From: Deltaproteobacteria bacterium
GTDB taxonomy: Bacteria; Bdellovibrionota_C; UBA2361; SZUA-149; JADZAE01
Length of the DNA: 64,000 bases
Direction of reading: 5' to 3'
Assembly: GCA_020852715.1 (NCBI GenBank)
Contig: JADZAE010000060.1
Coordinates: forward strand, 8,786 to 72,785
The notes under the pieces were generated by a model. The model saw only the letters and a program-made list of their open reading frames with translations, ran no database searches and had not been told where the DNA came from. The position numbers and the translations under genes are program-made. The first letter of the stretch is position 1; each line of letters starts with the position of its first letter. Below are positions 2,265 through 61,267 of this stretch, piece after piece.

Positions 2265-2359
2265 AGAAGCTGTAAGCCATAAATCCTGAAATAATATCGT
2301 TTATACCCTGTAGAGGGTTCATATTGAAAGGAATATTTTACGAGTGGTTTATTGATCAC

Positions 2360-2530
2360 AAAATGCCGCGGGCGACTTGGCGCGCGTGGCATGATCTGGA
2401 GGCTGCAGGCCCGAAGATCTGACGCGCCGGCGACACAGTTGTTCGCTGACGCGCACAACATGTATCCGCGCTTCACAAGCGTTTGTAAAATTATTTACCA
2501 TCGTGGCGGCGTGGCCGAGGGTGTTAGCGT
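2360..2530. repeat. GC-rich intergenic repeat, copy A. Carries the conserved core and the 3' module 'cttcacaagcgtttgtaaaattattt…cgtggcggcg' shared with copy B.
   Basis: A local GC spike in an AT-rich genome. Both 'ggcccgaagatctg' and 'cacaagcgtttgtaaaattattt' are shared almost exactly with 14745-14932. Core 'cagttgttcgctgacgcgcacaacatg' is shared with copies C, D and E. Confidence 0.7.
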
Positions 2531-4077
2531 TACTTTTCGTCGGGGTTGATAGCTAAATCAAAGGTCAATGTCTTATTCGGGGTAATTAATGTTTTCTTGC
2601 TTCCTTCGATTAAGGCCATGCTCCGATAGCCTTGCGAAACAATGGTTGAGGATTCGCTGGGGGTGAGATCGTCATTTAAGCCCTGCCCGCGCATTAGGGT
2701 TGGTAATAACTTGGTTAGGCTTTGATATTCATCGTTTCTACTTCTATTCAGGGTAGCGATCGTATCTGTGCATTTGGAATTTTCCGGTCCCAAGCAGATA
2801 AAAGCCAGCGGCACATTTATTAATTCCTGAAATAGTGGGCTATCGTGCGCGTGTAGCAGATACCCATGTTCGCCCAATGCTTCTCCGTGATCTGAGGTGA
2901 TGGCAAGTAGTATGCTTTGATTATTGCTTTGAGCGTGAGCTTCTATTTCTTTGATTAGGGCAAACACATTTTGGTCATTAAGTCGGACAGCTTGCTGATA
3001 CTGGTCAGTGATGTCATTTTTAAGCTTGGCTTTTATTGCCTCTGTGCCTTTCATGAACTGGCCGACAGTATTTAGGTAATTGGCCTGTATGCGGTTCTTT
3101 ACTCCCATAAATGGGAAATGCGTTCCGTAAAAATGCACTGTCAGAAAATACGGGGCAGTGATGGCGGCGTTTTCTAAGTCATATTTGATTGTTCGCACAA
3201 TGGCTTGATCGTCAAAGCCATGTTCCAGTTCGTAGAGGTTGATACCTTTTAATCTTTTCGCTAACAACTTCTCCTGAACTAAGCGTTTTCTGATTAGCGG
3301 CGGAGTTTGCAATTTTAGCTGGGGCTCGCAGATAAAAAGCGCTTCTAAGTTAAGCCAGTGATAGATTTGTGCCGAATATAAATAATTATGCACACCACTT
3401 GCCGCCAGCTCACGAAAATATGAATCATTGCAAGAAAAGGTTTGATTACCGATTTCGCTACGAGAGTGAAAGATGCGCGGCACAGAGATACTGGTTTCGC
3501 CGCCGGGGCTGATAAAATTCGAGTTTAGGTAATGTGGCCGGCTATGCAGATAACTAAGCACCTGAGGATAGTAGTCGCTAGTAAAATGCTTACTGTTTAC
3601 CGACTCCATTAAGAGTAGGACAACATTTAAGTCTACGCTCACATTTTGTTTGGGCAATGGAGCGATGTCGGTATCGAGCATTGTAACTTTTCGCTCATTA
3701 ATAAAGTTTCCTGAACTTGGTAGCTGTAGAGAAGGAGCGCTAAAGTGATATTTTTGCCAGCTATAGGCCATGATAATTAAAAAAACTATCATGATTATGC
3801 GTAGATTAACGCCCTTAACTTTAAAGTTACGACTGTAGTAGAGAGCGTAAAAAGTAATCACCACGAGCGCGAAACTATCCACCCAAAAAAGAAATATCTC
3901 GATAGGGCTAAAACTATAAAGGCCGGTATCAATGACTTCTTTGAAGGCAGGGGCATTTAGTGAATAGGTGAAGGATATTGTATAGCCGAAAACATCGTAA
4001 ATTTTATTGTTAAGATAAACAAAGCCCATTACAAACGCTGTGCCTAAAGCGATAAAAAAATCGATAAATTTTTTCAT
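2530..4077 (-). CDS. Sulfatase / alkaline-phosphatase-superfamily membrane protein (phosphoethanolamine-transferase- or LTA-synthase-like).
   Basis: About 5 N-terminal TM helices followed by a sulfatase-type periplasmic domain (…LAITSDHGEALGEHGYLLHAHD…, HFYGTHFPF). Confidence 0.65.
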   Translation of the reverse strand: MKKFIDFFIALGTAFVMGFVYLNNKIYDVFGYTISFTYSLNAPAFKEVIDTGLYSFSPIEIFLFWVDSFALVVITFYALYYSRNFKVKGVNLRIIMIVFLIIMAYSWQKYHFSAPSLQLPSSGNFINERKVTMLDTDIAPLPKQNVSVDLNVVLLLMESVNSKHFTSDYYPQVLSYLHSRPHYLNSNFISPGGETSISVPRIFHSRSEIGNQTFSCNDSYFRELAASGVHNYLYSAQIYHWLNLEALFICEPQLKLQTPPLIRKRLVQEKLLAKRLKGINLYELEHGFDDQAIVRTIKYDLENAAITAPYFLTVHFYGTHFPFMGVKNRIQANYLNTVGQFMKGTEAIKAKLKNDITDQYQQAVRLNDQNVFALIKEIEAHAQSNNQSILLAITSDHGEALGEHGYLLHAHDSPLFQELINVPLAFICLGPENSKCTDTIATLNRSRNDEYQSLTKLLPTLMRGQGLNDDLTPSESSTIVSQGYRSMALIEGSKKTLITPNKTLTFDLAINPDEK

Positions 4078-4328
4078 TATAGATGTAGTAAAAATATACC
4101 AAATACTTATTTGACCTTAAGTCTGCAAGATAATTAAACTTATTTTACTGATTGATCAACAGCAAAAGTCGCGTTTTTAGCTACTTTTAGTCGATATCTA
4201 TCATCTAACCATCTGAGAAGTAAGCTGTTTAGCCATTAACTGTATAATGGCCTGTGGTCGAATATCATTAGGTCTGAAGTGTATAGTTGGCTCAATGGCA
4301 AAGTGGTTTTCTTTTGCGGAGGCATTTC

Positions 4329-5486
4329 ATGGCGATTAGTAAATTAGAAGGTTCCCTAACCACAATTTCCGAAGGACAAAGCGACAATCGTATAGATCTT
4401 TCGTCTAGTTCTCGAGAGTATTACAAGCTTAAAGGTTTACTGGAAAAAGAGCGCGGTAATTCTCATTTGATTATTCTTCAAGGCACACCTGATCCTGATG
4501 CTATCTCTTCAGCTATGGCTTTAGGATTTCTGGGGATGCCTTACGGTATTGAGGCAACAGTGCTTTGTTTTATGGCTGTTAGTCATCAGGAGAATAGAGC
4601 TTTAGTAAAAAAGCTAGGTATTAAGCTGACAGTTTACGAGCAAGGTTTTGATTTTGCTAATTATGACATTTACAGCATAGTTGATTCACAAAAGCCTTCT
4701 ACGCCCGTTGATAAGCAGCTGCGCGAGGAGGGTGTTCGTTTTTTTGCTTTCATTGATCATCACCGTCCTGATCCGGCCGGTGTTCCTTATGCGAGCTTTG
4801 TTGATATTCGGGATGATGCAGCGAGCACTGCCGGTATTATGACGAGTTATATTGAGCAAGCTTATCCTGCGGGGCTGGATTTAGGAGACCCGGAGCAGGT
4901 GATTATGGCTACGGCATTAATGCATGGCATCAGAAGCGATACGCATAAATTTATTCGGGCTTCTCTGCTAGATCATCAAGCGGCAAGTTATTTATTTCCT
5001 AGTGTCGCCCATCAAACAATAGAACTGATTGAAAGAAAAATTTTAACCGCCGCGATGCTGGAAATGCTTGAGCAAGCACTGGTTAATAGAAAAGCGATAG
5101 ATAATATTATCTACTCTGATGTCGGGTTTGTAAGAGCCATTGATCGCGACGGGATTCCTCAGGCCGCCGAACTGCTTGTTACTCGCGAAGGTATAGATAC
5201 GGCGCTGGTTTGGGGCATAGTCGATGAAAAGTTTATAGACGGCTCATTTCGCACACGCAGCGAAATGATTAATCCTGATGAATTTCTAAAAGGCTGTCTA
5301 GGAATCTCACCGCAAAATGGCGAATATTACGGCGGCGGCAATTCGCGTGACAAAGGTGGTTTTCAAATTCCGCTTGGCTTTCTTTCTCAGTTCGACGATA
5401 AAGAACAAGTCTATGCTATGGCCAAAACGATTATTGAGCGATCTTTGCTTGATTATATAGGGAAAGCTTCTGAAACTGACAGATAA
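4329..5486 (+). CDS. DHH-family phosphoesterase (NrnA-like oligoribonuclease / pAp phosphatase).
   Basis: DHH motif (FIDHHRPD) and a DHHA1-like GGGNSRDKGG motif. GGAGG lies 7 nt upstream of the ATG at 4329; the longer ORF starting at 4287 lacks an SD. Confidence 0.7.
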   Translation: MAISKLEGSLTTISEGQSDNRIDLSSSSREYYKLKGLLEKERGNSHLIILQGTPDPDAISSAMALGFLGMPYGIEATVLCFMAVSHQENRALVKKLGIKLTVYEQGFDFANYDIYSIVDSQKPSTPVDKQLREEGVRFFAFIDHHRPDPAGVPYASFVDIRDDAASTAGIMTSYIEQAYPAGLDLGDPEQVIMATALMHGIRSDTHKFIRASLLDHQAASYLFPSVAHQTIELIERKILTAAMLEMLEQALVNRKAIDNIIYSDVGFVRAIDRDGIPQAAELLVTREGIDTALVWGIVDEKFIDGSFRTRSEMINPDEFLKGCLGISPQNGEYYGGGNSRDKGGFQIPLGFLSQFDDKEQVYAMAKTIIERSLLDYIGKASETDR

Positions 5487-14580: not shown

Positions 14581-14744
14581 AAAACCTCGCAAAAGATGTT
14601 TAACCAAAAAGCCAAACTCACATACCAAACCCATGGGGAGTTACAGATGAACCTTACAAATACTAAATCAGCTCAACGAGCATAGCTTCAAAAATTCTAT
14701 AAAAAAGTTCTCAGAGGAAGTGTTTAATGCGTGATATTAGTAGG

Positions 14745-14932
14745 GGGTTTGGCATCTATGGCCCGAAGATCTGGCGCGCTAACGTTGATAATGTCAGCTA
14801 CCGTGTGCGGCTATGCCGCCAACTGCCGAGGATACGTGCGGCGCAGGCGAACCAGCTGTTTACAGCATGTCTCGCGTTCCACAAGCGTTTGTAAAATTAT
14901 TTGCTTCCGTGGCGGCGAAGGCGAGGAGGAAT
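14745..14932. repeat. GC-rich intergenic repeat, copy B.
   Basis: Shares its 5' and 3' modules with copy A. The core carries an internal deletion relative to A, C and D. Confidence 0.7.
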
Positions 14933-18868: not shown

Positions 18869-19269
18869 TTAGGGTATGCGGCGCGAGAGTCTTATACACA
18901 AGTTGCTCACTAAGAATGTCGTTTTTAATTTTGCTACAAAATGACTATACGCAACAAAAGAGATGTCCTCTGTGGAGCGCGAGCCATGTTGCGAAGCGAC
19001 TGGGTCGCTTGAGGATCGCGGAAAAACTGTATTTCTCGGCATTAGTCGCCACATTTAAGGTCATTGGGAAACCGACACGGAGGCGACCCTGTTGTTCGCT
19101 CGCGCTCACATCATGGGTCGCGTTCCACAATACGTCATGCAAATTTAGGAGTTCGTGGAGCTCACGCTAGAGCCTCTTGAAGGCGCTCTTTCACGACTTG
19201 TGTATATGAATCAGCGTTCTGCGTGCCCTAAGCCTACTTGATGAATAGGTGTTATTTTGCTATACGCAA
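18869..19269. repeat. MITE-like GC-rich element, copy C. It fills the whole mdh-ndk intergenic region.
   Basis: Imperfect terminal inverted repeats: ttagggtatgcg…tatacacaagt (18869-18903) and acttgtgtata…gcgtgccctaa (19196-19231). A direct repeat attttgcta[+9]tatacgcaa (18928-18954) matches attttgctatacgcaa (19254-19269). Conserved core at ~19087-19125. Confidence 0.6.
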
Positions 19270-19711: not shown

Positions 19712-19729
19712 TAATTGTCTAGGGGTCGT

Positions 19730-20794
19730 ATGACCCCTTTTCTTTTCATGTCTAAGCAAAAACTAGAAATTTTAGATTATCCGCGCAAAGCATTGGCTGC
19801 GCTTTTAACCGAACAGTTCGAGGTTGAGCCTTTTCGCGCTAATCAACTTTTCCCGTGGATATACCGCTCGCGGCATTTAGACTTCTCACAGATGACAGAC
19901 ATTTCTAAGTCTGTGCGTGAGGTGTTTAGTGAAAATTTTAATATCTATCGGCCAAAGCGCGCACAAATGCTTGCTTCCAAAGACGGTAGTTATAAATTTC
20001 TCTGGGAGCTCGACGACAGTAGTAATATTGAATCGGTTTTGATAAAACAGTCCAAGCGTGTAACCTTATGCCTATCTTCGCAAGTGGGCTGTGCTATGCG
20101 TTGTGCCTTTTGCGTAACAGGAACTTTGGGACTCAAGCGTGATTTGCAAGTTCATGAGATTATCGGACAGGTAATTGCGGTGCGCGATGCTATTGCCGAG
20201 CATGAGCTGGAAGATTTTGGCAATATCGTTTTTATGGGCATGGGTGAGCCGCTGCATAATATCGATAATGTTATCGCCGCGACAGAAATTTTAAACGACG
20301 AATATGGTTTTAACTTCTCCGGGCGTAAGATTACCATCTCCACATCGGGCTTAGTTAATGGCATTAGGCAGCTGGGGCAGAGTAAGGCTAAAGCTAATTT
20401 AGCTATTTCATTAAATGCCACGACAGACGAGGTGCGCAAATCACTTATGCCTGTTAATAAACGCTATCCTCTGGAAGTGCTCATGGCTGAGCTCAGGAGG
20501 TACCCGCTTAAAGCGCACCGACGTATTACGTTCGAGTATGTCTTAATTAAGGGGGTTAATGACAGCAGAGATGACCAAAAACGCTTAATTAAACTCTTGC
20601 GTGGCATACCTAGTAAGGTGAATATAATACCCTATAACCCTGGTGTAGACTTGGGTTATGAGACGCCGAGTAGGGAGGTTATTGTGCAGTGGCAAGAAAA
20701 TCTGCTCGGTGGAGGGCTAAACGCCACAATTAGGTGGTCAAAAGCCGATGATATTAATGGCGCCTGTGGTCAGCTTGCAGCAAAGCATAAATGA
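19730..20794 (+). CDS. rlmN: 23S rRNA / tRNA m2A methyltransferase RlmN (radical SAM).
   Basis: GCAMRCAFCVTG (Cx3Cx2C). The start is ambiguous: TTG at 19715 or ATG at 19730 or 19748. An AGGGG SD precedes 19730. Confidence 0.85.
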   Translation: MTPFLFMSKQKLEILDYPRKALAALLTEQFEVEPFRANQLFPWIYRSRHLDFSQMTDISKSVREVFSENFNIYRPKRAQMLASKDGSYKFLWELDDSSNIESVLIKQSKRVTLCLSSQVGCAMRCAFCVTGTLGLKRDLQVHEIIGQVIAVRDAIAEHELEDFGNIVFMGMGEPLHNIDNVIAATEILNDEYGFNFSGRKITISTSGLVNGIRQLGQSKAKANLAISLNATTDEVRKSLMPVNKRYPLEVLMAELRRYPLKAHRRITFEYVLIKGVNDSRDDQKRLIKLLRGIPSKVNIIPYNPGVDLGYETPSREVIVQWQENLLGGGLNATIRWSKADDINGACGQLAAKHK

Positions 20795-23185: not shown

Positions 23186-23587
23186 ATGAAAAAGAAGCTA
23201 CTTAAAAGCAAAAAGACTGCTCCTCGCAATCAAAAGATATTGCTGGTTGATGATAATCCGGATCATTTGGCATTATTTCGCTTACTCTTGGAGCAAAATG
23301 ACTTTCAGGTTGTTTGCGCTGATGGGGCAAAAGATGCCTTTCATGTTCTTGATGATAATGAAGTAAATGTGATTGTTTGTGACGTAATGATGCCGGAAAT
23401 AAACGGCCAGAATTTTATCGAAGAACTTCGTTTGCATAAACATTATGCCAATATTCCTATTATCATGATTACATCCGGTGCCGATGTTGGGGAAGTTGAT
23501 CTGTTAATGAGCGGTGCCGATTTGTTTTGTCCCAAAACCCAAGCCAAGAAAATGCTTGTTTCGCAGGTGAAGCTGTTACTGTCGTAA
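23186..23587 (+). CDS. Orphan single-domain response regulator (CheY-like receiver).
   Basis: KILLVDDNPD…VIVCDVMMPEINGQ… with the conserved Asp residues. No adjacent histidine kinase. Confidence 0.75.
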   Translation: MKKKLLKSKKTAPRNQKILLVDDNPDHLALFRLLLEQNDFQVVCADGAKDAFHVLDDNEVNVIVCDVMMPEINGQNFIEELRLHKHYANIPIIMITSGADVGEVDLLMSGADLFCPKTQAKKMLVSQVKLLLS

Positions 23588-23589
23588 CG

Positions 23590-23770
23590 GGCGTAATCGT
23601 TCACGCTTTTGGCCGACTACTTTGTCAGACATCGTGGGTCGAGAGCCGCTTTTGGGCTCTTGAATTGCTCCGCGAGTAGTTCGCTACACTACCGAATGGC
23701 TTCGGTTCTTGCTGAGAAGATAGCGAGTTCTTAGCTTTAAGAACCTTCGACGAGGGTCGCATAAGGATCC
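23590..23770. repeat. GC-rich repeat-like segment immediately after the response-regulator stop.
   Basis: GC-rich block with partial similarity to the left module of copy C (catcgtgggtcg vs catcatgggtcg). Confidence 0.35.
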
Positions 23771-24089
23771 TCAATTGGTGCTCGCCACTCGTCTTTAAAT
23801 AAGGAATATGCAGTTGCTCCTTTATTATTGTTAGCTGCTAGATGTGCTTCTAATGTCGCACCGCGCCTCGTATTCGGCTCAAAATCGCGACGGTTACAGG
23901 TTATTTAAAAATATAAATTTTTATCTCTTGATATGTTGTAAGTAGCTGCTTCCTCACATATTAATAAGTCGTCAACGAATACTAACGGGCAGTCATAAGC
24001 AAAATTCACGAATCCATCAAATACGTTACTTGAGAATATTCCGCGTAAGCGCCGGGTGCGGTAGAGCCGAAATAAGGAGATGCTACATA

Positions 24090-24235
24090 TTTTTGACAAG
24101 TCAGCGTTCCGCTTTGCTTCACTACTATCATGCGCACCCAGTAGCTGCCGCGGGCATGTGACGCGTAGGTGAGTCCGTTGTTGTCTAACGCTTACAACAT
24201 GGGTAGCTAATACTAGAATTCATTAAATACGTGCT
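24090..24235. repeat. GC-rich repeat, copy E.
   Basis: The segment ctatcatgcgcacccagtagctgccgcggg matches 33185-33215. Core ccgttgttgtctaacgcttacaacatgggtag at 24176-24210. Confidence 0.55.
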
Positions 24236-25003
24236 TCGGAAACATGTGTGTGAGGCTTAACCACTGTCTGTCAGCCGTGGCCGCAAAACTCTAAAAAAAA
24301 TCGATATAATCAGATGCTCACATACCTAACCTTATAAATCGGAAAAAATCTTTTATAAATGATACGCAAAATTTATGTTTAGCCATAAAGGTGCGGTAAA
24401 TACGGTGCGTTAAATACTTTGAGTGTTTGTTGCTGCGTTGGCAATGAACGGTTTTATATCTAATTTAACTAGAGGTTATATGAAGAAAAAATTAATATTT
24501 ATGTTAGCATTGTTGGGAGTAGTTAGTGCAAATATCAATTAGGCGTATGCTCATCCGGGTAATTATCGTTGCTATCCTGTGGCACCCCAGATTAAACTCG
24601 TGCCTAAAGTAATGTCTAGTCCAGATCCATTCCTGTTTTATCTTCCGACAACGGCAGGCTAATGTAACATAGAGTATCTAAATGCATCACAATTGAATAG
24701 TGGCTACCTAAATGGCAGGGAGTTTAAAAAAGGTTTATTATCAATACTCAGGGAAACTTACTAAAAATACATCTTATGGACCAAAAAGTGTAATTTTTTA
24801 AGATTTTAAAAATTCGAATGGTGGCTTAGTTGCCTGGTAGCCAAAGGATATATCTGCGGATTCCGAAGAGGAGGGAGCGAAACTTTGTGAAGCATATAAT
24901 ATAGACGAGGCTGAACAATTTGCAAAAAAATTTAGACGCACAATAATAAATAAGTGCAGTGCCTTGAAATAGTTATCTAAAAACAAAAATAGATGCTCCG
25001 ATG

Positions 25004-25045
25004 GCGCGGTAATGTTTTTAAAATATTACCGCGCTTTGTTGTTTT
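25004..25045. terminator. Bidirectional rho-independent terminator.
   Basis: Perfect 10-bp stem gcgcggtaat/attaccgcgc with a T-run on the plus side. Lies immediately 3' of the minus-strand gene ending at 25044. Confidence 0.6.
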
Positions 25046-29901: not shown

Positions 29902-30366
29902 GTGGCTATTAAGAAAGCAAAAAAAGCCGCTAAAAAAGCGCAAACAAAGAAAGCTACTAAGAAAGCTCCAGCAAAAAAAAAAGTAGTTGCAAAAAAGACT
30001 GTTGTTGTAAAAGCCGCTCCTAAGAAACCGGTACCAATGCCACCTAGTCGGCCAGTTATTGTTACTCCTAAGAATGGCGCTACAAAGCAGTTCACTCAGA
30101 GTGAGTTGTTTCAGTGCTTACAGGGATCATGTGGTTTTCACACTAAGGCTGAAGCCAAGGCATATTACGAAGGCTTCACCAGCATGATTCAGACCGCTTT
30201 GAAAAAGGGTTATAAACTGATGCTTCCGGGATTAGGGAAAATTCAAGTTCGTACCAGCAAAGCTCGTATGGGCCGTAACCCGATGACTGGCGAGGAGATA
30301 AGGATTCCGGCACGTCGTAAAGTGCGCTTTACTCCGCTAAAGGCATTGAAGGATGCAGTACTTTAA
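29902..30366 (+). CDS. HU/IHF-family DNA-binding protein with a histone H1-like Lys/Ala-rich N-terminal tail.
   Basis: N-terminal ~60 aa AIKKAKKAAKKAQTKKATKKAPAKKK… followed by an HU fold (…GFGKF… equivalent, RNPMTGEEIRIPARRKVRF). GTG start with a GAGGTGA SD. Confidence 0.8.
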   Translation: MAIKKAKKAAKKAQTKKATKKAPAKKKVVAKKTVVVKAAPKKPVPMPPSRPVIVTPKNGATKQFTQSELFQCLQGSCGFHTKAEAKAYYEGFTSMIQTALKKGYKLMLPGLGKIQVRTSKARMGRNPMTGEEIRIPARRKVRFTPLKALKDAVL

Positions 30367-33129: not shown

Positions 33130-33330
33130 CAACGGGTGGGCGCGATAGCGCCGGTCGCCCCTACGAATTGCGAAGCATCGCCAAGGCAATACTGCTGTCA
33201 TGCGCACCCAGTGCGGCAGCAATATTTTGTAGGCCGATCGCGCTGACGCGTGCTGCCCTAAAGTAACGCATTTGATGGATTTGTGTTCAGGCACCGCGTG
33301 TGCCCAAAAATTGCCGCGGGCGCCATTTCC
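33130..33330. repeat. GC-rich repeat, copy F.
   Basis: ctgtcatgcgcacccagtgcggcagc matches copy E. Contains GC-rich palindromic segments. Confidence 0.5.
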
Positions 33331-55257: not shown

Positions 55258-57108
55258 ATGGCACAGGTAGAAAGGCAGAAATTGGAAGCGGATATTGTTT
55301 GCGTAGGCATGGGGCCGGCAACAGGCGGCTTTTTAACTACGCTAACTAAAGAAATCTCCGAGCATCAAGGCGAGAGCTACCTAGATAGCAAAGTCATGCC
55401 GGGTATGCCGCTACAGGTTCTCTGCTATGAACGCGCCGACGATATGGGTTTTGGTGTTTCCGGTGTGGTCTCCCGCGCACGCGGCATCAAGCAAAGCTTT
55501 CCTGATATTGACTGGAGCCAGATTCAAATGGCTGCTCCGGTTAAGGGCGAAAAGCTTGCTTATCTATTAGACCCCATTGGGGCAAGTTGTCGCTCTGGGC
55601 TCTTTAAGTTCAGTGATACGCTGATTCGTAGCCTCAAAGCTGTTCTTCCTTACAAAGACGAAGCTCTGGAAATGCCTTTCATTCCGCCGTTTATGGAAAA
55701 GCACGGAGGGGCAGTGTTTTCGATCGGCCAGTTTAACCAGTGGGTAGGCATGAACTTGATGAGTTCAGGGCAGGTGCAGATCTGGCCGGGCATGCCTGTA
55801 GAAAAGCCGCTGGTGGAGAATAAAAAAGTTAAAGGCGTGCGCTTGGTCAATCAAGGTGTGGAGAAAAGCGGCGCCGAGACTGAGATGTTTATGCCGGGCA
55901 TGGACATAGAAGCCGCGCTTACTGTGGTGGGCGATGGACCGGTAGGCGCTGTCGGGCAGTATTTGGACGAAGAGTTTGGTATGCCCCAGGGGCATCACAA
56001 GCATGAGTGGGCTGTGGGCATGAAGTTCGTCGTGCAGCTTCGCGATGATGTGGACTTGGAGCCGGGTACAGTGTTTCATACTTTCGGCTATCCTGAGCCG
56101 GAGGTTTTTGGCTTCATGTATATATATCCGGGTAAGGTGGCATCATTAGGGATTTTCATTCCTTCTTGGTTTGATAATCCGGTGCGCACAGCTTACCGTT
56201 ATTTGCAACATTGGATGATGCATCCTTATATTTGGAAGCATGTAAAAGGCGGCACACTAAAGTCTTGGGGTGCTAAGTCGCTGCAAGAGTCGGGCATCAC
56301 AGGGGAACCGCATCTTTGTGGCGATGGCTATGCGCGCATTGGCGAGGGGTCAGGCAGTACAAACGTGCTCACCGGCTCCGGCGTGGATGAAGCGTGGACT
56401 ACGGGAACTCAGTTAGCTGAAGGCGTGATTGAGTTACTAAAAGCCGGAAAGCCTTTTACCAAGGAGAATTTAGAAGCAACTTATGTGGCGAAGCGCCGCG
56501 CAAGCTGGGTGCAGGAAGAGGGTAAAGTTGCTGAGAAGTCGCGAAACGGTTTTAGCTACGGAGTTATTCCGGGGCTAATCGGTATGTCGCTAGCCGGGTT
56601 TTCTAAAGGGCTACTGAACATTCCGGCCAAACTCGTCGCGCCGCATAAACGCTACAAGAGCTTGGAGCAGTATTTTGCCGGCAAGCTTTCAGTGCAGAAG
56701 ATCGCCGAGATCAGAGAGATCTGCAAAAAAGCTAATAAGACCATACATGATGAAATTATGAATGCATGCGGGTGGCCGGAGATTCCCTATGACGGTACGC
56801 TACTGGTAACTCAGCAAGATGCTCTACTGATAGGCGGTAAGGTGCAGGCTCAAGGCGGCTTCGCTGATCATGTAGAGTTTATCGATACAGATATTTGCAA
56901 AGGCTGTGGTATGCAGGTGTGCGTAGAGATTTGCTCGGCGCAGGCTATTGCTCCGGGCGAAGAAGGGGTGCCAGTGTTTGATCGCGAGAAGTGCGTGCAT
57001 TGTGGCGCTTGCTTGTGGAACTGCTCGCAAGAGTTACCGCAGGGACACGGTGTCACCAACGTGAAGTTCGGCGCCGGCTGCGGCGGCCTGCATAGCGTGG
57101 AGAATTAA
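55258..57108 (+). CDS. Electron-transfer flavoprotein:ubiquinone oxidoreductase (ETF-QO; FixC-FixX-like fusion).
   Basis: FAD-binding N-terminus (DIVCVGMGPATGG) and a C-terminal 4Fe-4S ferredoxin-like cluster (CKGCGMQVCVEICSAQ…CVHCGACLWNCS). Confidence 0.85.
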   Translation: MAQVERQKLEADIVCVGMGPATGGFLTTLTKEISEHQGESYLDSKVMPGMPLQVLCYERADDMGFGVSGVVSRARGIKQSFPDIDWSQIQMAAPVKGEKLAYLLDPIGASCRSGLFKFSDTLIRSLKAVLPYKDEALEMPFIPPFMEKHGGAVFSIGQFNQWVGMNLMSSGQVQIWPGMPVEKPLVENKKVKGVRLVNQGVEKSGAETEMFMPGMDIEAALTVVGDGPVGAVGQYLDEEFGMPQGHHKHEWAVGMKFVVQLRDDVDLEPGTVFHTFGYPEPEVFGFMYIYPGKVASLGIFIPSWFDNPVRTAYRYLQHWMMHPYIWKHVKGGTLKSWGAKSLQESGITGEPHLCGDGYARIGEGSGSTNVLTGSGVDEAWTTGTQLAEGVIELLKAGKPFTKENLEATYVAKRRASWVQEEGKVAEKSRNGFSYGVIPGLIGMSLAGFSKGLLNIPAKLVAPHKRYKSLEQYFAGKLSVQKIAEIREICKKANKTIHDEIMNACGWPEIPYDGTLLVTQQDALLIGGKVQAQGGFADHVEFIDTDICKGCGMQVCVEICSAQAIAPGEEGVPVFDREKCVHCGACLWNCSQELPQGHGVTNVKFGAGCGGLHSVEN

Positions 57109-57109
57109 A

Positions 57110-57312
57110 TATTAGATTGGGAGCGCGACCCATCTTTAGTAGCGGAGCGGAGAAAGTGGGCGCCTGCGGTTTAAGTTAGTTCGGCGGGTGTCGGCGGAGG
57201 CCGCTATTGCTGTGCTGCGCAGTAGCGTTTTGGCAATGTTCTGCGTCGGTGACCCAGTTGTTTGCTAGCGCTCACAACATGGGTGAGCGTTCCATAAAAC
57301 GCGGCGGGTGGT
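57110..57312. repeat. GC-rich repeat, copy D, inserted between the ETF-QO stop codon and its terminator, flanked by a perfect 18-bp direct repeat.
   Basis: atagcgtggagaattaaa occurs at 57092-57109 (gene 3' end including the stop) and at 57313-57330. The core ccagttgtttgctagcgctcacaacatgggtgagcgttcca is at 57262-57300. Confidence 0.75.
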
Positions 57313-57334
57313 ATAGCGTGGAGAATTAAACGTA

Positions 57335-57368
57335 AGGGCACGCTGCGCGTGCCCTGAACAAATTTTTA
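57335..57368 (+). terminator. Rho-independent terminator, presumably of the ETF-QO gene, displaced by the repeat insertion.
   Basis: Perfect palindrome agggcacgc-tgc-gcgtgccct followed by gaacaaattttt. Confidence 0.6.
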
Positions 57369-57399
57369 GATGTTAGAAAATAAACCAAGGAGATAAATC

Positions 57400-58212
57400 G
57401 TGAGTAATGCTTATTCGATAATTGTCTGTGCAGGCTTGGCGCCTGATCCGTTACAAAGGCTTGAGCCCATGGATACACCTACTGGGCCGGCGCTTAAAAA
57501 CGAAATGATGCTTCCTGCTGTGCTTGACCCGTGGGCGGCTTGCGCATTGTATGAGGCTGATAATCTAGCCAAGAAACTGCCGGGCTCTAAAGTTTACTTG
57601 GTGAGCATGGCGCTTAAGACAAAGCTCCAGCAAGTGATGATGGTGCTTTCGCAAAAAGTGCCTTTTGAGCTTGTCGCTATCGATGGGCCAAGTAACGGTT
57701 TTACTGATGCTCGCGAGTGTGCCTCAGAGCTTGCCCAAGCTATAGAAGCTATTCCCGGACTGGATAAGGACAAAATGCTTTTGTTCGGCGGTTGGGAGTC
57801 GGCTACCCGCGCCGCGGGTGCGACCATGCAAATACTTGGTGAGAAGCTAGGCGTTGTCGATCAGTTCCAAGGCGTGGACAAAATTGAGATTGAACCAAGT
57901 GGAGCGATTAAACTCTGGGAGCGCGTAGAAGGCGGAAAACAGCAAGTGTCACTTTGTGAAAGCGCTCCGGTGATGGTTGGCTGGGCGACAGGCGAGCTGC
58001 CTGAGCCACCAAATAATCCGCAAGTTGGTATGGCGAACATGCGCACAGTGATGCCGGCGTTACAGAAGGCAAAATCTGCCGCCGCGAGCAGCTCAGCACT
58101 GAAGTTTAAGGGAGTAACTTTACCGGCGCAGGTGCGTGAAACGCGCATTGAAAAGGACATGCCGGTAGAGGCTATCGCTCAAGAGTTAGTAACATGGATC
58201 AGGGGGAACTAA
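57400..58212 (+). CDS. etfB: Electron transfer flavoprotein beta subunit.
   Basis: Typical ETF-beta (FixA) N-terminus and overall pattern. Tightly coupled to etfA. Confidence 0.8.
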   Translation: MSNAYSIIVCAGLAPDPLQRLEPMDTPTGPALKNEMMLPAVLDPWAACALYEADNLAKKLPGSKVYLVSMALKTKLQQVMMVLSQKVPFELVAIDGPSNGFTDARECASELAQAIEAIPGLDKDKMLLFGGWESATRAAGATMQILGEKLGVVDQFQGVDKIEIEPSGAIKLWERVEGGKQQVSLCESAPVMVGWATGELPEPPNNPQVGMANMRTVMPALQKAKSAAASSSALKFKGVTLPAQVRETRIEKDMPVEAIAQELVTWIRGN

Positions 58213-58214
58213 GC

Positions 58215-59243
58215 ATGGATAAGATTTTATTAATTGCCCATACAGAGGCTAATGGAAGTTTAAGCAAAGCCTCATTAGAAGCACTGACCTGTGCTAAAGA
58301 TTTAGCTGCCAGCCTAAGCACTACTTTTGCTGTAGGCGTGTTTGGCGAAAACACAGCTAAGGCGCTTGAGCAAATCGGTTCTTGCGGAGCAGAGAAGTAT
58401 CTAAGCGTGTCCGGTGCTGATTTCAAAGACGCGCGCTACGCAACTGACTCTTATGCCGTAGAAGGAATATATAGAAAGGCGCAAGCTTCTATTGTTATAG
58501 CAGCAGGCACTTCGCGTATGAACCGCGTGATACCGGGTGTTGCGCACCGCGTTGAAGGTGTAGCCGAGCTGCATGTTAGTAGCATTGCCGGAAGCGCTAC
58601 CGAGCTAACGGCAACTCGCTGGCTATACAGGCAACGCATAGAGGCCGTTATAACACGCGCCAGTCGTCCTTGGTTTTTGGGTGTTGATTCTGGGAACTAC
58701 ACTGCATGGACTGGTTCGACATCAGCCGTAACAGCTGAAAGCGTTGCGACTGAAGCTCCGGCGGCTTGTAAGCGCAGCAAAGTTGTGGGCCTAGAGTCAC
58801 CGGGAAGCGGCGAGCAAACTATTAAACCTGATGCTGAGCTTCTCATGGTTGCCGGCGCCGGTTGGACTAAGAAACAAGCTGACGGCACAGTACACGCGCA
58901 AGAAGCCCGTAAGACTATTTTGGGCTTCTTATCCAAGAGCGGAGCTTCCCTAGGTGGCTCTAAAGCTATGGTCGATTTGGATAGCGAAAACCGTGAAGCC
59001 TTCAACTTCATGACTCACCTAAACCAAATCGGTCAGACAGGCACCTCGCCGCGTCATCAAAAAGGGCTATCCACCTGCTGCCACGGCGAAGAGCCGCACG
59101 CAGTCGGCTGGCGTTTCATCAATGAGCGGCGCGCCGTAAACCTTGACGCCAACTGCGGCTGGGCCCGCGGCAAAGCTGACGTACTCTATGTCGCTGATGC
59201 TTTTGCTGTTATGGCTAAGGTAAATGAGCTATTATCTAAATAA
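58215..59243 (+). CDS. etfA: Electron transfer flavoprotein alpha subunit.
   Basis: ETF-alpha FAD-binding C-terminal region (…AGAGWTKKQADG…, …VLYVADAFAVMAKVNELL…). AGGGGG SD. The ORF-track start at 58194 overlaps etfB. Confidence 0.8.
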   Translation: MDKILLIAHTEANGSLSKASLEALTCAKDLAASLSTTFAVGVFGENTAKALEQIGSCGAEKYLSVSGADFKDARYATDSYAVEGIYRKAQASIVIAAGTSRMNRVIPGVAHRVEGVAELHVSSIAGSATELTATRWLYRQRIEAVITRASRPWFLGVDSGNYTAWTGSTSAVTAESVATEAPAACKRSKVVGLESPGSGEQTIKPDAELLMVAGAGWTKKQADGTVHAQEARKTILGFLSKSGASLGGSKAMVDLDSENREAFNFMTHLNQIGQTGTSPRHQKGLSTCCHGEEPHAVGWRFINERRAVNLDANCGWARGKADVLYVADAFAVMAKVNELLSK

Positions 59244-59899: not shown

Positions 59900-61267
59900 A
59901 TGTTAGCTCTCTTAGCTGGTGATGCTTGGTTATTTGCAATCGTATGTTTTGTATTCTTAATTTTTAGCATTTTGTTTTTTTTAGCATCACGCTACAAAAG
60001 GTGCGCCTCGGATGAGATATTAGTAGTATACGGAAAGGTTAGGGAAAACCAGTCGGCGCGCTGTATTCATGGTGGTGGCGCTTTTGTTTGGCCGCTTATT
60101 CAAGAAAGCTCGTATATGAGCTTAACGCCGATGATTATTACTATCCCACTGGAGAATGCCCTGTCTTTACAGAATATTCGTATTAATGTGTCCAGCACAT
60201 TTACAGTCGGTATCAGCACTGAGCCGGGCATTATGAATAATGCCGCTGAGCGTTTATTACGCCTTGAGCCCAGACATATTGAAAATATGGCTCAGGAAAT
60301 CATCTTTGGTCAGCTGCGTTTAACAGTGGCCTCGCTAACCATTGAGCAAATTAACCAAGATCGCGAGAGTTTTTTGGAGTCTATTCGTAAGAATGTTGAG
60401 CCTGAACTTAATAAGATCGGCTTATTTTTAATTAACGTAAATATTACCGATATCACAGACGGTTCTAACTATATTGAGAGTATTGGTAAAAAGGCGGCAT
60501 CAGAGGCGGTGAATACCGCCAAAGTTGATGTAGCCGAACAGAATAAAATCGGTGCTATTGGTGAAGCTGTAGCCAATAAAGATCAGATCATTCGTGTTGC
60601 CGAGAATATGGCTGAAGCGGCCAAAGGACAAAAAAGAGCCGAAGCTGATAAGCGCGTTTATTTAGAGGAGCAAGAAGCAGAAGCTGTAAAAGGCGAAAAG
60701 GCGGCTGATGCGAGCAAGCGCGTATTTGTGCAGCAACAAGAAGCCGAAGCCATTAAGGGCGAAAAAGCGGCTATCGCTGACCAACGCATTTATGTTCAAC
60801 ACCAAGAAGCTTTGGCTATTGACGGAGAAAATAAAGCTGAAGCACAGATTGCTGAAGCCAACGCCATCCTGGCCATGCGCCAAGCCGAAGCTTTCCAAAA
60901 AGGTGAGGTGGCCAAACGCCAAGCTGAGGTGGAGATCAATAAGGCTCAATATTTAGCTGAAGAGCAGCGTTTGATTGCCGGTGAAGTTGTTAAGCAAGAA
61001 ATTGAAAAGCGTAAAGTGGAAATCGATGCTGAGGCTATGGCCGAGAAGATTAGGCGCGAGGCTAAAGGTCAAGCTGACGCTTTTTTGGCTAAGTATGAAG
61101 CTGAGGCCAAGGGTATTCGACAAGTGCTGGAGAGTAAGGCTGCTGGTTATGAGTCTTTAGTGCGTAGCTGTAACGGTGATGCGCAGTCAGCTTCTACGCT
61201 GTTGTTGATCGAAAAACTTGAAGGCATAATAGGCAAGCAAGTCAATGAAAGGAAAAGCGCCAATTGA
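59900..61267 (+). CDS. Flotillin / SPFH-family protein with tandem 22-aa EA-type repeats.
   Basis: N-terminal TM, SPFH core, then ~4 repeats (KRAEADKRVYLEEQEAEAVKGE / KAADASKRVFVQQQEAEAIKGE / KAAIADQRIYVQHQEALAIDGE …). Confidence 0.8.
   Translation: MLALLAGDAWLFAIVCFVFLIFSILFFLASRYKRCASDEILVVYGKVRENQSARCIHGGGAFVWPLIQESSYMSLTPMIITIPLENALSLQNIRINVSSTFTVGISTEPGIMNNAAERLLRLEPRHIENMAQEIIFGQLRLTVASLTIEQINQDRESFLESIRKNVEPELNKIGLFLINVNITDITDGSNYIESIGKKAASEAVNTAKVDVAEQNKIGAIGEAVANKDQIIRVAENMAEAAKGQKRAEADKRVYLEEQEAEAVKGEKAADASKRVFVQQQEAEAIKGEKAAIADQRIYVQHQEALAIDGENKAEAQIAEANAILAMRQAEAFQKGEVAKRQAEVEINKAQYLAEEQRLIAGEVVKQEIEKRKVEIDAEAMAEKIRREAKGQADAFLAKYEAEAKGIRQVLESKAAGYESLVRSCNGDAQSASTLLLIEKLEGIIGKQVNERKSAN

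Follow-up and report, generated by a model that had tools for sequence, protein, structure and literature searches.

BIMEs are mosaic combinations of palindromic units and short motifs between genes; the units, each about 35-40 nt long, alternate in orientation, and BIMEs are not known to be associated with target duplications. Classical MITEs carry inverted repeats at their very ends and are flanked by short duplications of 2-10 bp. The IS200/IS605-type single-strand mechanism proposed for REPINs is not known to produce target duplications. REPINs themselves are doublets of repetitive extragenic palindromic sequences that are mobilised by RAYT transposases (PMC3116915, PMC3337134). Bacterial examples of MITEs include ERIC, the Correia/NEMIS elements and the Coxiella MITEs (PMC5896051; reviewed in PMC10969869). 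Insertion sequences of the IS1202 group, about 1.5 kb long, encode a TnsB-like transposase, carry 24-26-bp terminal inverted repeats (5'-TGT...ACA-3') that adjoin the duplication and make target duplications of 16-28 bp (PMC10132070).

Here we describe a family of intergenic repeats, one copy of which lies just behind an ETF-QO gene, between two perfect copies of an 18-bp sequence (Table 1). Five family copies, A to E, occur in the window, by which we mean the whole 64-kb stretch of DNA that was analysed, or about one per 13 kb. All five are on the plus strand (covariance model R1, E 4e-15 to 2e-19), all lie between open reading frames, and their six-frame translations have no open frame in common. 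Every copy has a conserved hairpin module as its core, along with a variable spacer and, towards the 5' side, a weaker inverted version of the core; a 3' module is present in copies A, E and B and mostly missing from D. Two compensatory pairs support the core hairpin consensus across the five copies, and the core of copy E combines a shortened hairpin loop with a compensatory T-A to C-G pair. Applied to the inverted 5' modules, R1 gave E values of 6e-5 for B (18971-19008, minus strand) and 0.023 for A, and a weak match for D (57110-57183, minus strand, E 3.6). Copy B has inverted ends of 17 nt (18971-18987 and 19112-19128, 15/17) and folds with a 17-bp closing stem; its z-score of -3.0 lies at one end of a modest range that extends to -1.2. 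The cores are 65-71% identical between copies, from which it follows that the family is probably old and vertically inherited, and also that there is no young sister copy to define the ends of the element.

Table 1. Coordinates of the features discussed, numbered from the first base of the window
Feature	Position	Strand	Remarks
Repeat copy A	2350..2525	+	core 2410-2485, 3' module 2467-2520; boundaries tentative
Repeat copy E	14735..14927	+	core 14827-14891; boundaries tentative
Repeat copy B, between mdh and ndk	18955..19253	+	core 19063-19137, plus 3' module
Core of repeat copy C	24149..24225	+	covariance model R1
ETF-QO gene, 616 aa, intact	55258..57108	+	ORF; native C-terminus ...GGLHSVEN*
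Left copy of the 18-bp direct repeat	57092..57109	+	14 final ETF-QO coding bases, TAA and 1 more base
Repeat copy D, non-coding insert, 203 bp, 57% GC	57110..57312	+	homologous to copy B; absent from orthologous loci
Left (5') module of copy D	57119..57164	-	core hairpin module in inverted, degenerate form; read from sequence
Core module of copy D	57229..57304	+	covariance model R1, 80.4 bits, E 5e-19
Right copy of the 18-bp direct repeat	57313..57330	+	non-coding duplicate of the ETF-QO gene end
Intercistronic hairpin AGGGCACGC-TGC-GCGTGCCCT	57335..57355	+	9-bp stem, 3-nt loop
ETF beta subunit gene	57400..58212	+	RBS aaggag at 57387-57392
ETF alpha gene	58194-59243		downstream of ETF beta

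In several respects the family resembles REPINs: it is extragenic, multi-copy and non-coding, it places two inverted hairpin-forming modules around a spacer, it shows compensatory changes and, like REPINs, it is probably old and vertically inherited. It differs from them in length (160-300 bp, with modules of about 45 nt, compared to about 100 bp for REPINs), in the extra asymmetric 3' module of some copies, in the lack of a RAYT gene among the 46 window proteins scanned and in the perfect 18-bp duplication at copy D, which contrasts with the duplication-free insertion of IS200/IS605-type systems. A small, non-autonomous, dispersed and intergenic repeat with an inverted-repeat architecture, frequently located near gene ends and terminators and with a direct duplication flanking an insertion, also recalls MITEs. 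Unlike in classical MITEs, however, the inverted modules lie inward of the tentative ends, which are asymmetric, and the duplication measures 18 bp. That length falls within the 16-28-bp range of the IS1202 group, whereas copy D starts with TATTAG and ends with GGTGGT rather than with TGT...ACA, and the window encodes no transposase of that kind. Finally, the sharing of some modules and not others between copies is reminiscent of BIMEs: A shares with E (their 3' modules are 83% identical), B with D, and C with an element at 33141-33330. The 18-bp repeat at copy D, which resembles a target duplication, sets the family apart from BIMEs.

The homology of copy D to B covers 57117-57301 (nhmmer E 8e-8 to 9e-7, 69% identity, about 165-185 nt aligned), and the 203 bp of D contain nothing outside family sequence. 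The suggestion in the earlier note that the segment between the two 18-bp copies is a GC-rich repeat element therefore holds, with a GC content of 57% against 43.8% for the window and clear family membership. The conserved core hairpin, ACCCAGTTGT..ACAACATGGGT, spans approximately 57252-57284, and GGGAGCGCGACCCAT in the left module is imperfectly complementary to ATGGGTGAGCGTTCC at 57279-57293. The inverted modules stop short of the duplication, by 8-9 nt at the left and by 17-18 nt at the right, and there is no complementarity between the outermost bases, TATTAGAT... and ...GGGTGGT. Read from the sequence, GGTGKT ends both D and B immediately 5' of the right repeat, and TATTAG begins both D and E; we infer that the element runs from 5' TATTAG... 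to ...GGTGGT 3'.

The 18-bp sequence ATAGCGTGGAGAATTAAA matches at 18 of 18 positions, as had been claimed, and is present at only two sites in the entire window. It forms the sole perfect direct repeat of at least 14 nt at a spacing of 60-450 nt within the 64 kb. By the same criteria, shuffled sequence yields 0.2 such 14-mers and zero 18-mers, and none of 3,000-5,000 control positions of the same geometry attained the score of the pair (p <= 0.0003). Since the ETF-QO stop codon TAA occupies 57106-57108, the left copy comprises 14 coding bases, the stop and a single further base. The 18-mer is absent from every other repeat copy and so does not belong to the repeat family; it is instead the native ETF-QO end, because orthologue C-termini (3-4 aligned) all have the form GGLHS(V/A)EN*, matching the end held in the left copy. 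The ETF-QO protein, which is 100% identical to NCBI MCC6933189.1, carries the ubiquinone-binding domain PF21162 and a C-terminal 4Fe-4S domain (Fer4 families). If the register is kept, the match reaches 30 nt (57080-57109 versus 57301-57330, 26/30), the additional part consisting of 7 perfect bases and a 5-nt patch with 1 match. This upstream extension has a p of about 0.01 when estimated by hand and is non-significant when scored as a free local alignment. We rejected a longer duplication of the ETF-QO end, as nothing upstream of the 18-mer is significant except the in-register GCGGCGG.

Comparison with related genomes is consistent with a site that was once empty. In the retrievable relatives the spacer between the ETF-QO and ETF-beta genes is 23 nt (L001), 29 nt (L002) or 67 nt (L036/L037), and the element is absent. 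The 67-nt spacer consists of the stop, a hairpin, a T-run and an RBS, followed by ETF-beta. After deletion of 57110-57330 in silico, the two genes are about 70 nt apart and the spacer is laid out in the same way; the reconstructed junction would read ...CATAGCGTGGAGAATTAAAcgtaAGGGCACGC. The earlier prediction that an empty site should show the gene end and terminator without a duplication is thus borne out by the layout in L036/L037, relatives that are distant. Indeed, ETF-beta identity to the relatives is 77-84%, which makes a base-by-base alignment of the spacers impossible.

We consider it probable, with moderate confidence, that a non-autonomous MITE- or REPIN-like element was inserted with an 18-bp target duplication, using an enzyme encoded outside the window. 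Four points are shown directly: a perfect duplication, an insert that belongs to the repeat family, orthologous loci that lack the element, and a reconstructed empty site whose layout recurs in a relative. The mechanism would be that of a staggered cut: a lineage-specific, hairpin-rich intergenic repeat would have entered the extreme 3' end of ETF-QO, a few bases upstream of a pre-existing intercistronic hairpin, with the target cut at an 18-bp stagger and gap repair copying those 18 bp. The left copy would then preserve the last five codons and stop of ETF-QO, and the non-coding right copy would have stayed beside the hairpin. The responsible enzyme would have acted in trans. We also infer that the insertion is fairly recent. 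Insertion into the last codons of a gene can spare the protein, given that the duplication regenerates the gene end, and for the host the main consequence would be that a longer and more structured spacer separates the ETF-QO gene from the ETF genes. Insertion with target duplication or a copy-paste event, the two readings offered previously, gain support from the native end in the left copy and from relatives that lack the element; a transposase-type stagger and copy-paste both fit the present data. The single notable aspect is the great length of the duplication, which is unusual among bacterial mobile elements. This had been remarked upon before, and fairly, yet there is precedent in the 16-28 bp of the IS1202 group (PMC10132070).

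The hairpin behind the right copy probably is a terminator or attenuator that predates the insertion. It begins 4 nt 3' of the right copy and has a predicted energy of -17.9 kcal/mol (z -3.7); among the perfect GC-rich hairpins of the window, none is stronger. A TTTTT run at 57363-57367 starts 7 nt past the stem, and for that reason a terminator scan of the window did not call the hairpin; a canonical intrinsic terminator is found elsewhere, at 19721-19738. In other words, a GC-rich stem-loop is present and a U-tract immediately after the stem is absent, and the structure is terminator-like and non-canonical. The description of a strong terminator directly after the repeat is right as to the terminator-like GC-rich hairpin and overstated as to its strength, given the offset T-run and the negative scan. 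The hairpin was also considered as a repeat and rejected, as it occurs once in the window and a 9-mer that it has in common with copy B is at chance level.

Flanking repeats at copies other than D are decayed or doubtful. At copy B the candidate flanks are ATTTTGCTA[+11 nt]TACGCAA (18928-18954) and ATTTTGCTATACGCAA (19254-19269), a 16-nt repeat that is interrupted by 11 nt, with p 0.014-0.075 (0.014 being the value from genomic controls). It adjoins the same tentative element ends, with the inverted modules of B at distances of 16 and 125 nt from it, and is at chance level under a whole-window scan. The direct repeat around copy C matches at 15 of 17 positions (24010-24026 and 24216-24232, p 0.015), and its left member lies inside a separate repeated module that is also found, uninterrupted, at 33240-33285 (minus strand). 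We rejected the C flanks as clean support because the left copy continues into the natural sequence of that other module, which is a misfit with target duplication. No convincing flanking repeat was seen at E (p 0.11-0.32) or A (p 0.15-0.26). Fisher's combined p is 0.016 for A, B and E and 0.012 for A, B, C and E. Among the other copies of the window there are thus candidates at B and C and no standout repeats at A and E, so that a long flanking duplication is at most a possible trait of the family as a whole.

Several points weigh against insertion with target duplication. The inverted modules stand off from the duplication in both D and B, and the tentative ends do not form an inverted pair as the ends of classical DDE elements do. 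The poor flanking repeats of the other copies, the lack of a mobilising enzyme among the 46 window proteins scanned, the low identity between copies and the distance of the relatives count on the same side. Alternatively, the structure could have arisen by template switching or microhomology-mediated repair, in which replication or repair synthesis switched away from the ETF-QO end to a repeat copy elsewhere in the genome, copied some 200 nt there and re-entered 18 nt upstream of its exit point, with no transposase involved. This would account for the difference between the segment bounded by the duplication and that bounded by the inverted modules, for the mosaic boundaries of the family and for a window that encodes no transposase. 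Further, GCGGCGGGTGGT, the 12 nt before the right copy, matches GCGGCGGCCTGC, the 12 nt before the left copy, at 8 of 12 positions, 7 of them consecutive, a similarity that could have supplied the homeology for the return switch. Copies A and E carry the motif CGYGGCGG(C)GTGG natively in their 3' module. Counter to this, the upstream similarity is non-significant as a free alignment and lies in a GC-rich context, and the 16-17-nt candidate repeats at B and C, together with the end motifs that D and B share next to the repeats, would become coincidences. We regard this origin as unlikely. A donor locus already flanked by ...GAGAATTAAA or ATAGCGTGG... would indicate recombination and not target duplication.

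An improbable variant of the insertion scenario is that the family represents an asymmetric-ended bacterial non-autonomous element with a conserved subterminal 3' hairpin, one orientation relative to replication and slightly variable duplications of about 16-18 bp, mobilised by a mechanism undescribed for such small repeats. Target-primed reverse transcription of a SINE-like RNA would fit, as would trans-mobilisation by an integrase or transposase with an 18-bp cleavage stagger, for example an IS1202-like or a Cas1/casposase-like enzyme.

The conservation of the core hairpin, with its two compensatory pairs in five copies, also raises the possibility of a functional structured RNA family, in which case the duplicated gene end might have been kept for a joint role with the hairpin, such as attenuation of the operon or processing of the 3' end. 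The shared strand of the five copies and the position of the element within an operon-like spacer are in line with such a role. We nevertheless find it quite improbable. Rfam yields no match for copy D, none at the gathering threshold across the whole window and none at E <= 10 for copies D and B. The genomic contexts of the copies differ, from beside convergent gene ends to upstream and downstream of unrelated genes (a convergent sulfatase gene stops 4 nt from the 3' end of copy A), and the folding z-scores are modest. Elements that are recognised as folded DNA would equally conserve a hairpin, and the origin of the duplication is left unexplained.

Integrase-mediated insertion typically restores the 3' end of a gene through identical direct repeats, and the 18/18 identity is compatible with an attL/attR core around either a very small mobilisable element or what is left of a larger island. 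Such site-specific integration is very improbable and is largely refuted by the other copies, which lie in unrelated flanks without the 18-mer and thus have no common attachment site. Moreover, there is no integrase in or near the insert, 203 bp is too short to encode a recombinase, and the segment holds family sequence only. A chance match or an artefact of assembly is scarcely credible as the origin of the arrangement. The contig that holds the window was assembled from a metagenome, and repeats can produce misjoins in such contigs, but the 18 perfect bases exceed all shuffles and genomic controls, an 18-nt repeat is below usual assembler word lengths and would not be expected to cause a misjoin, and the neighbours, ETF-QO and ETF-beta, are those expected from relatives.

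If the 18 bp are a true target duplication that is typical of the family, then this would be a small repeat with an unusually wide cleavage stagger and non-inverted ends, and its presence would suggest that an uncultured lineage of which little is known has a trans-acting enzyme that is still uncharacterised. If, on the other hand, the family is merely another lineage-specific MITE- or REPIN-like repeat, its interest is local, for annotation and assembly.

A Pfam scan of 46 window proteins detected no transposase, integrase, reverse transcriptase or HUH (REP-associated, RAYT-type) transposase, and no parent insertion sequence sharing the ends of the element was found within the window. Searches for the core pattern GTTGTTNNCTNNCGCNNACANCATG gave single matches, 10 in species-representative genomes, 23 in JGI metagenome contigs and 0 in viral contigs, none with extended similarity to the element; plasmid DNA searched with D and B gave no match. 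Covariance model R1 returned nothing significant in the closest relatives, L001 and L002. In another relative, P0123 (80% ETF-beta identity), the 1,571-bp contig from sample ERZ22666135 begins 236 nt upstream of ETF-beta and no gene is called in that stretch, which could be a second occupied site.

A lineage-specific MITE/REPIN-like repeat is inserted at the end of the ETF-QO gene; the finding is real. The window contains the sequence ATAGCGTGGAGAATTAAA in two places only, 57092-57109 and 57313-57330. Because the TAA of the ETF-QO ORF (55258-57108, 616 aa) lies at 57106-57108, the left copy comprises the final 14 coding bases, the stop and one more base. The 18-mer is the sole perfect direct repeat of at least 14 nt at 60-450 nt spacing in a scan of the 64-kb window; shuffled sequence yields 0.2 perfect 14-mers and zero 18-mers at this spacing. 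None of 3,000-5,000 genomic control positions of the same geometry matched its score (p <= 0.0003). Both copies of the perfect duplication described in the earlier note are confirmed. Read on in register, the repeat extends to 26 of 30 matching nt, the additional 12 nt comprising seven matching, GC-rich positions and then five positions of which one matches (p ~0.01, a hand binomial estimate). Free alignment of the sequences upstream of the two 18-mers gives no significant similarity, so 18 bp is taken as the established repeat length. The perfect duplication preserves the ETF-QO gene. By eye, a 16-codon frame at 57279-57329 (ATG GGT GAG ... AGC GTG GAG AAT TAA; MGERSIKRGGWYSVEN*) runs from the core hairpin into the duplicated gene end and is probably meaningless.

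The closest obtainable relatives keep the gene order and have no element. From the ETF-QO stop to the ETF-beta start there are 23 nt in locus L001 (79% identity to the window in ETF-QO, 84% in ETF-beta), 29 nt in L002 (ETF-QO 69%) and 67 nt in L036/L037 (ETF-beta 77%). Since all four aligned proteins end in GGLHS(V/A)EN*, the left 18-bp copy is the native end of ETF-QO. The L036 spacer consists of the stop, 27 nt, the hairpin CCAGGG-ata-CCCTGG, TTTTATTTTTGTT, an RBS and GTG. Taking 57110-57330 (the element and one repeat copy) out of the window leaves the stop, 5 nt, a hairpin, a T-run, an RBS and GTG in ~70 nt, which is the L036 architecture; the relatives are too divergent for the spacers to be aligned base by base. 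At this resolution the layout expected of an empty site is found and, with the relatives element-free and the left copy native, the original interpretation (insertion with target duplication, or a copy-paste event) was essentially right. The ETF-beta of a further relative (P0123, 80% identical) lies on a 1,571-bp contig (ENA sample ERZ22666135) that starts 236 nt 5' of it. These 236 nt hold no called gene; in the other relatives, 23-67 nt separate the end of ETF-QO from ETF-beta. An insertion may have occurred in this spacer in a second lineage too and broken the assembly there.

Downstream of the duplication, AGGGCACGC-TGC-GCGTGCCCT (57335-57355) exceeds all other perfect GC-rich hairpins of the window in strength (-17.9 kcal/mol, z -3.7) and occurs there once. 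It had been read as a strong terminator; the strength of the hairpin holds, but the T-run begins 7 nt past the stem and a terminator scan did not call it, in contrast to the canonical terminator after ndk (19721-19738). "Terminator-like" or "attenuator" describes this intercistronic hairpin best. Given an analogous structure in L036, it is probably older than the insertion.

The 203 bp between the 18-mers (57110-57312) are 57% GC and hold copy D of a dispersed family, first detected as a 49-nt core at four sites, with a fifth, partly different copy (E) near 14830. We ran a covariance model of the core on the whole window with filters off. It scores the five copies at E 4e-15 to 2e-19, by construction, as it was built from these same five, and finds no copy beyond them.

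Cores of the five repeat copies in the window
Copy	Position	Strand	Source
A	2410-2485	+	covariance model
E	14827-14891	+	covariance model
B	19063-19137	+	covariance model
C	24149-24225	+	covariance model
D	57229-57304	+	covariance model

The core folds as a hairpin (ACCCAGTTGT...ACAACATGGGT in copy D). Compensatory changes affect two of its pairs across the set of five; one is T-A to C-G in copy E, where the loop is also shortened. Minus-strand matches to the model on the 5' side of copies B (18971-19008, E 6e-5), A (E 0.023) and, weakly, D (E 3.6) indicate a repeat unit made of the hairpin module and an inverted second copy, with a variable spacer. In the fold of copy B a 17-bp stem closes the structure (z -3.0); B is homologous to D over the full length (69% identity, nhmmer E 8e-8 to 9e-7). 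An extra 3' module (CACAAGCGTTTGTAAAATTATTT...CGTGGCGGCG) is common to A, E and B, and mere traces of it occur in D. Because the D core is only 65-71% identical to the other four, the family is old and mosaic. All five copies are intergenic, with neighbouring genes in either orientation. The strand carrying every core has positive GC skew across nearly all of the window, and the shared placement may reflect an orientation bias relative to replication (p only 0.06, n = 5). Rfam has no match to the family, plasmid DNA holds nothing similar, and searches for the core pattern in species-representative genomes, JGI metagenome contigs and viral contigs gave isolated chance matches only. Between a flagellin-like ORF and the gene after it lies another GC-rich intergenic element, in minus orientation (33141-33330), which is without the core hairpin. 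It shares a 46-nt module, CACrAATCCATCAAATrCGTTACTT...CGCGTmAGCGC (78%), with the sequence that flanks copy C on the left, and an inverted 15-mer, TCATGCGCACCCAGT, with copy C itself; the genome therefore contains several mosaic repeat types.

Copies A, B, C and E have no perfect long flanking repeat. At copy B, ATTTTGCTA[+11 nt]TACGCAA (18928-18954) pairs with ATTTTGCTATACGCAA (19254-19269), a chained match at chance level in a whole-window scan, with p = 0.014 against genomic controls (37 nt around each tentative end) and p = 0.075 in wider windows. Copy C has a 15/17 repeat (p 0.015) that is at odds with a target duplication: its left copy lies in the module found uninterrupted at 33240-33285, and what follows this left copy is the module's own natural continuation. 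For A and E, p is 0.15-0.26 and 0.11-0.32. Fisher's combined p of 0.012 (A, B, C, E) or 0.016 (A, B, E) suggests decayed duplications, short of proof. As the repeat at D is perfect whereas the copies diverge by 30-35%, we infer that D inserted well after the family diversified; none of the copies in the window is its source.

In D, 8-9 nt separate the inverted modules from the left 18-mer and 17-18 nt from the right one; in copy B the corresponding gaps to the flanking repeats are 16 and 125 nt. As read from the sequence, the 5' start is TATTAG in D (57110) and E (14735) and TATTGA in A (2350), and the 3' end is GGTGKT in D (57307-57312), B (19248-19253) and A (2520-2525). These motifs directly adjoin the flanking repeats in D and B. 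If these tentative assignments, made after the fact, are true, the element ends would be asymmetric.

The explanation we somewhat favour is that a non-autonomous repeat integrated by way of a staggered target cut. The target would have been cut with an 18-bp stagger at the ETF-QO end, the repeat integrated at the cut by an enzyme encoded elsewhere, and the 18 bp duplicated by fill-in repair. The main rival, copy-paste by template switching or microhomology-mediated repair, would account for inverted modules placed imprecisely relative to the duplication, the GCGGCGG homeology seen in register at the right junction and the mosaic family boundaries, but fits poorly with flanking repeats that recur at a similar length and with end motifs common to several copies; we regard it as improbable, if worth keeping in mind. 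It is unlikely that the element arrived by site-specific integration, that the copies are a functional RNA family or that the arrangement is an artefact.

In architecture the family most resembles REPINs, which consist of two inverted hairpin units and a spacer, are extragenic and are long-lived (PMC3116915, PMC3337134). Bacterial MITEs and BIMEs are also close. In a classical MITE the terminal inverted repeats adjoin the duplication, whereas none lie beside that of D, and the asymmetry of the tentative ends differs from DDE-type MITEs. Target duplication is not known for the single-strand mechanism proposed for REPINs; copy D, in contrast, has one. An 18-bp duplication is indeed unusually long, as the earlier note held. 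The IS1202 group makes target duplications of 16-28 bp (PMC10132070), but its TGT...ACA ends are unlike the tentative ends of this family.

The contig to which the window (43.8% GC) belongs is 72,785 bp long and comes from a metagenome-assembled genome that NCBI lists as 'Deltaproteobacteria bacterium' (protein MCC6933189.1). By Pfam, the locus encodes, in order, an acyl-CoA dehydrogenase of 790 aa, ETF-QO (4Fe-4S domain at the C-terminus), ETF beta, ETF alpha and SPFH/Band-7 proteins; the remaining scanned ORFs of the window are housekeeping genes or unmatched. The 46 window proteins scanned include no transposase, integrase, reverse transcriptase or HUH enzyme. Directly 5' of copy A, ~1.7 kb (424-2160) have a longest ORF of at most 56 aa on both strands, with purines in excess on the + strand (GC skew +0.18, AT skew +0.17) and nothing in Rfam that matches at a threshold as loose as E <= 1; the stretch may be what is left of a gene, or a large non-coding RNA. 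Copy C lies within 1.46 kb (23587-25044) without an ORF of at least 90 aa. Tandem repeats occur within an SPFH/Band-7 gene (59900-61267; 66-nt unit x2.1, 60671-60810) and in the N-terminal extension of an HU-like DNA-binding protein gene (29902-30366; 27-nt unit x2.3, 29918-29979).
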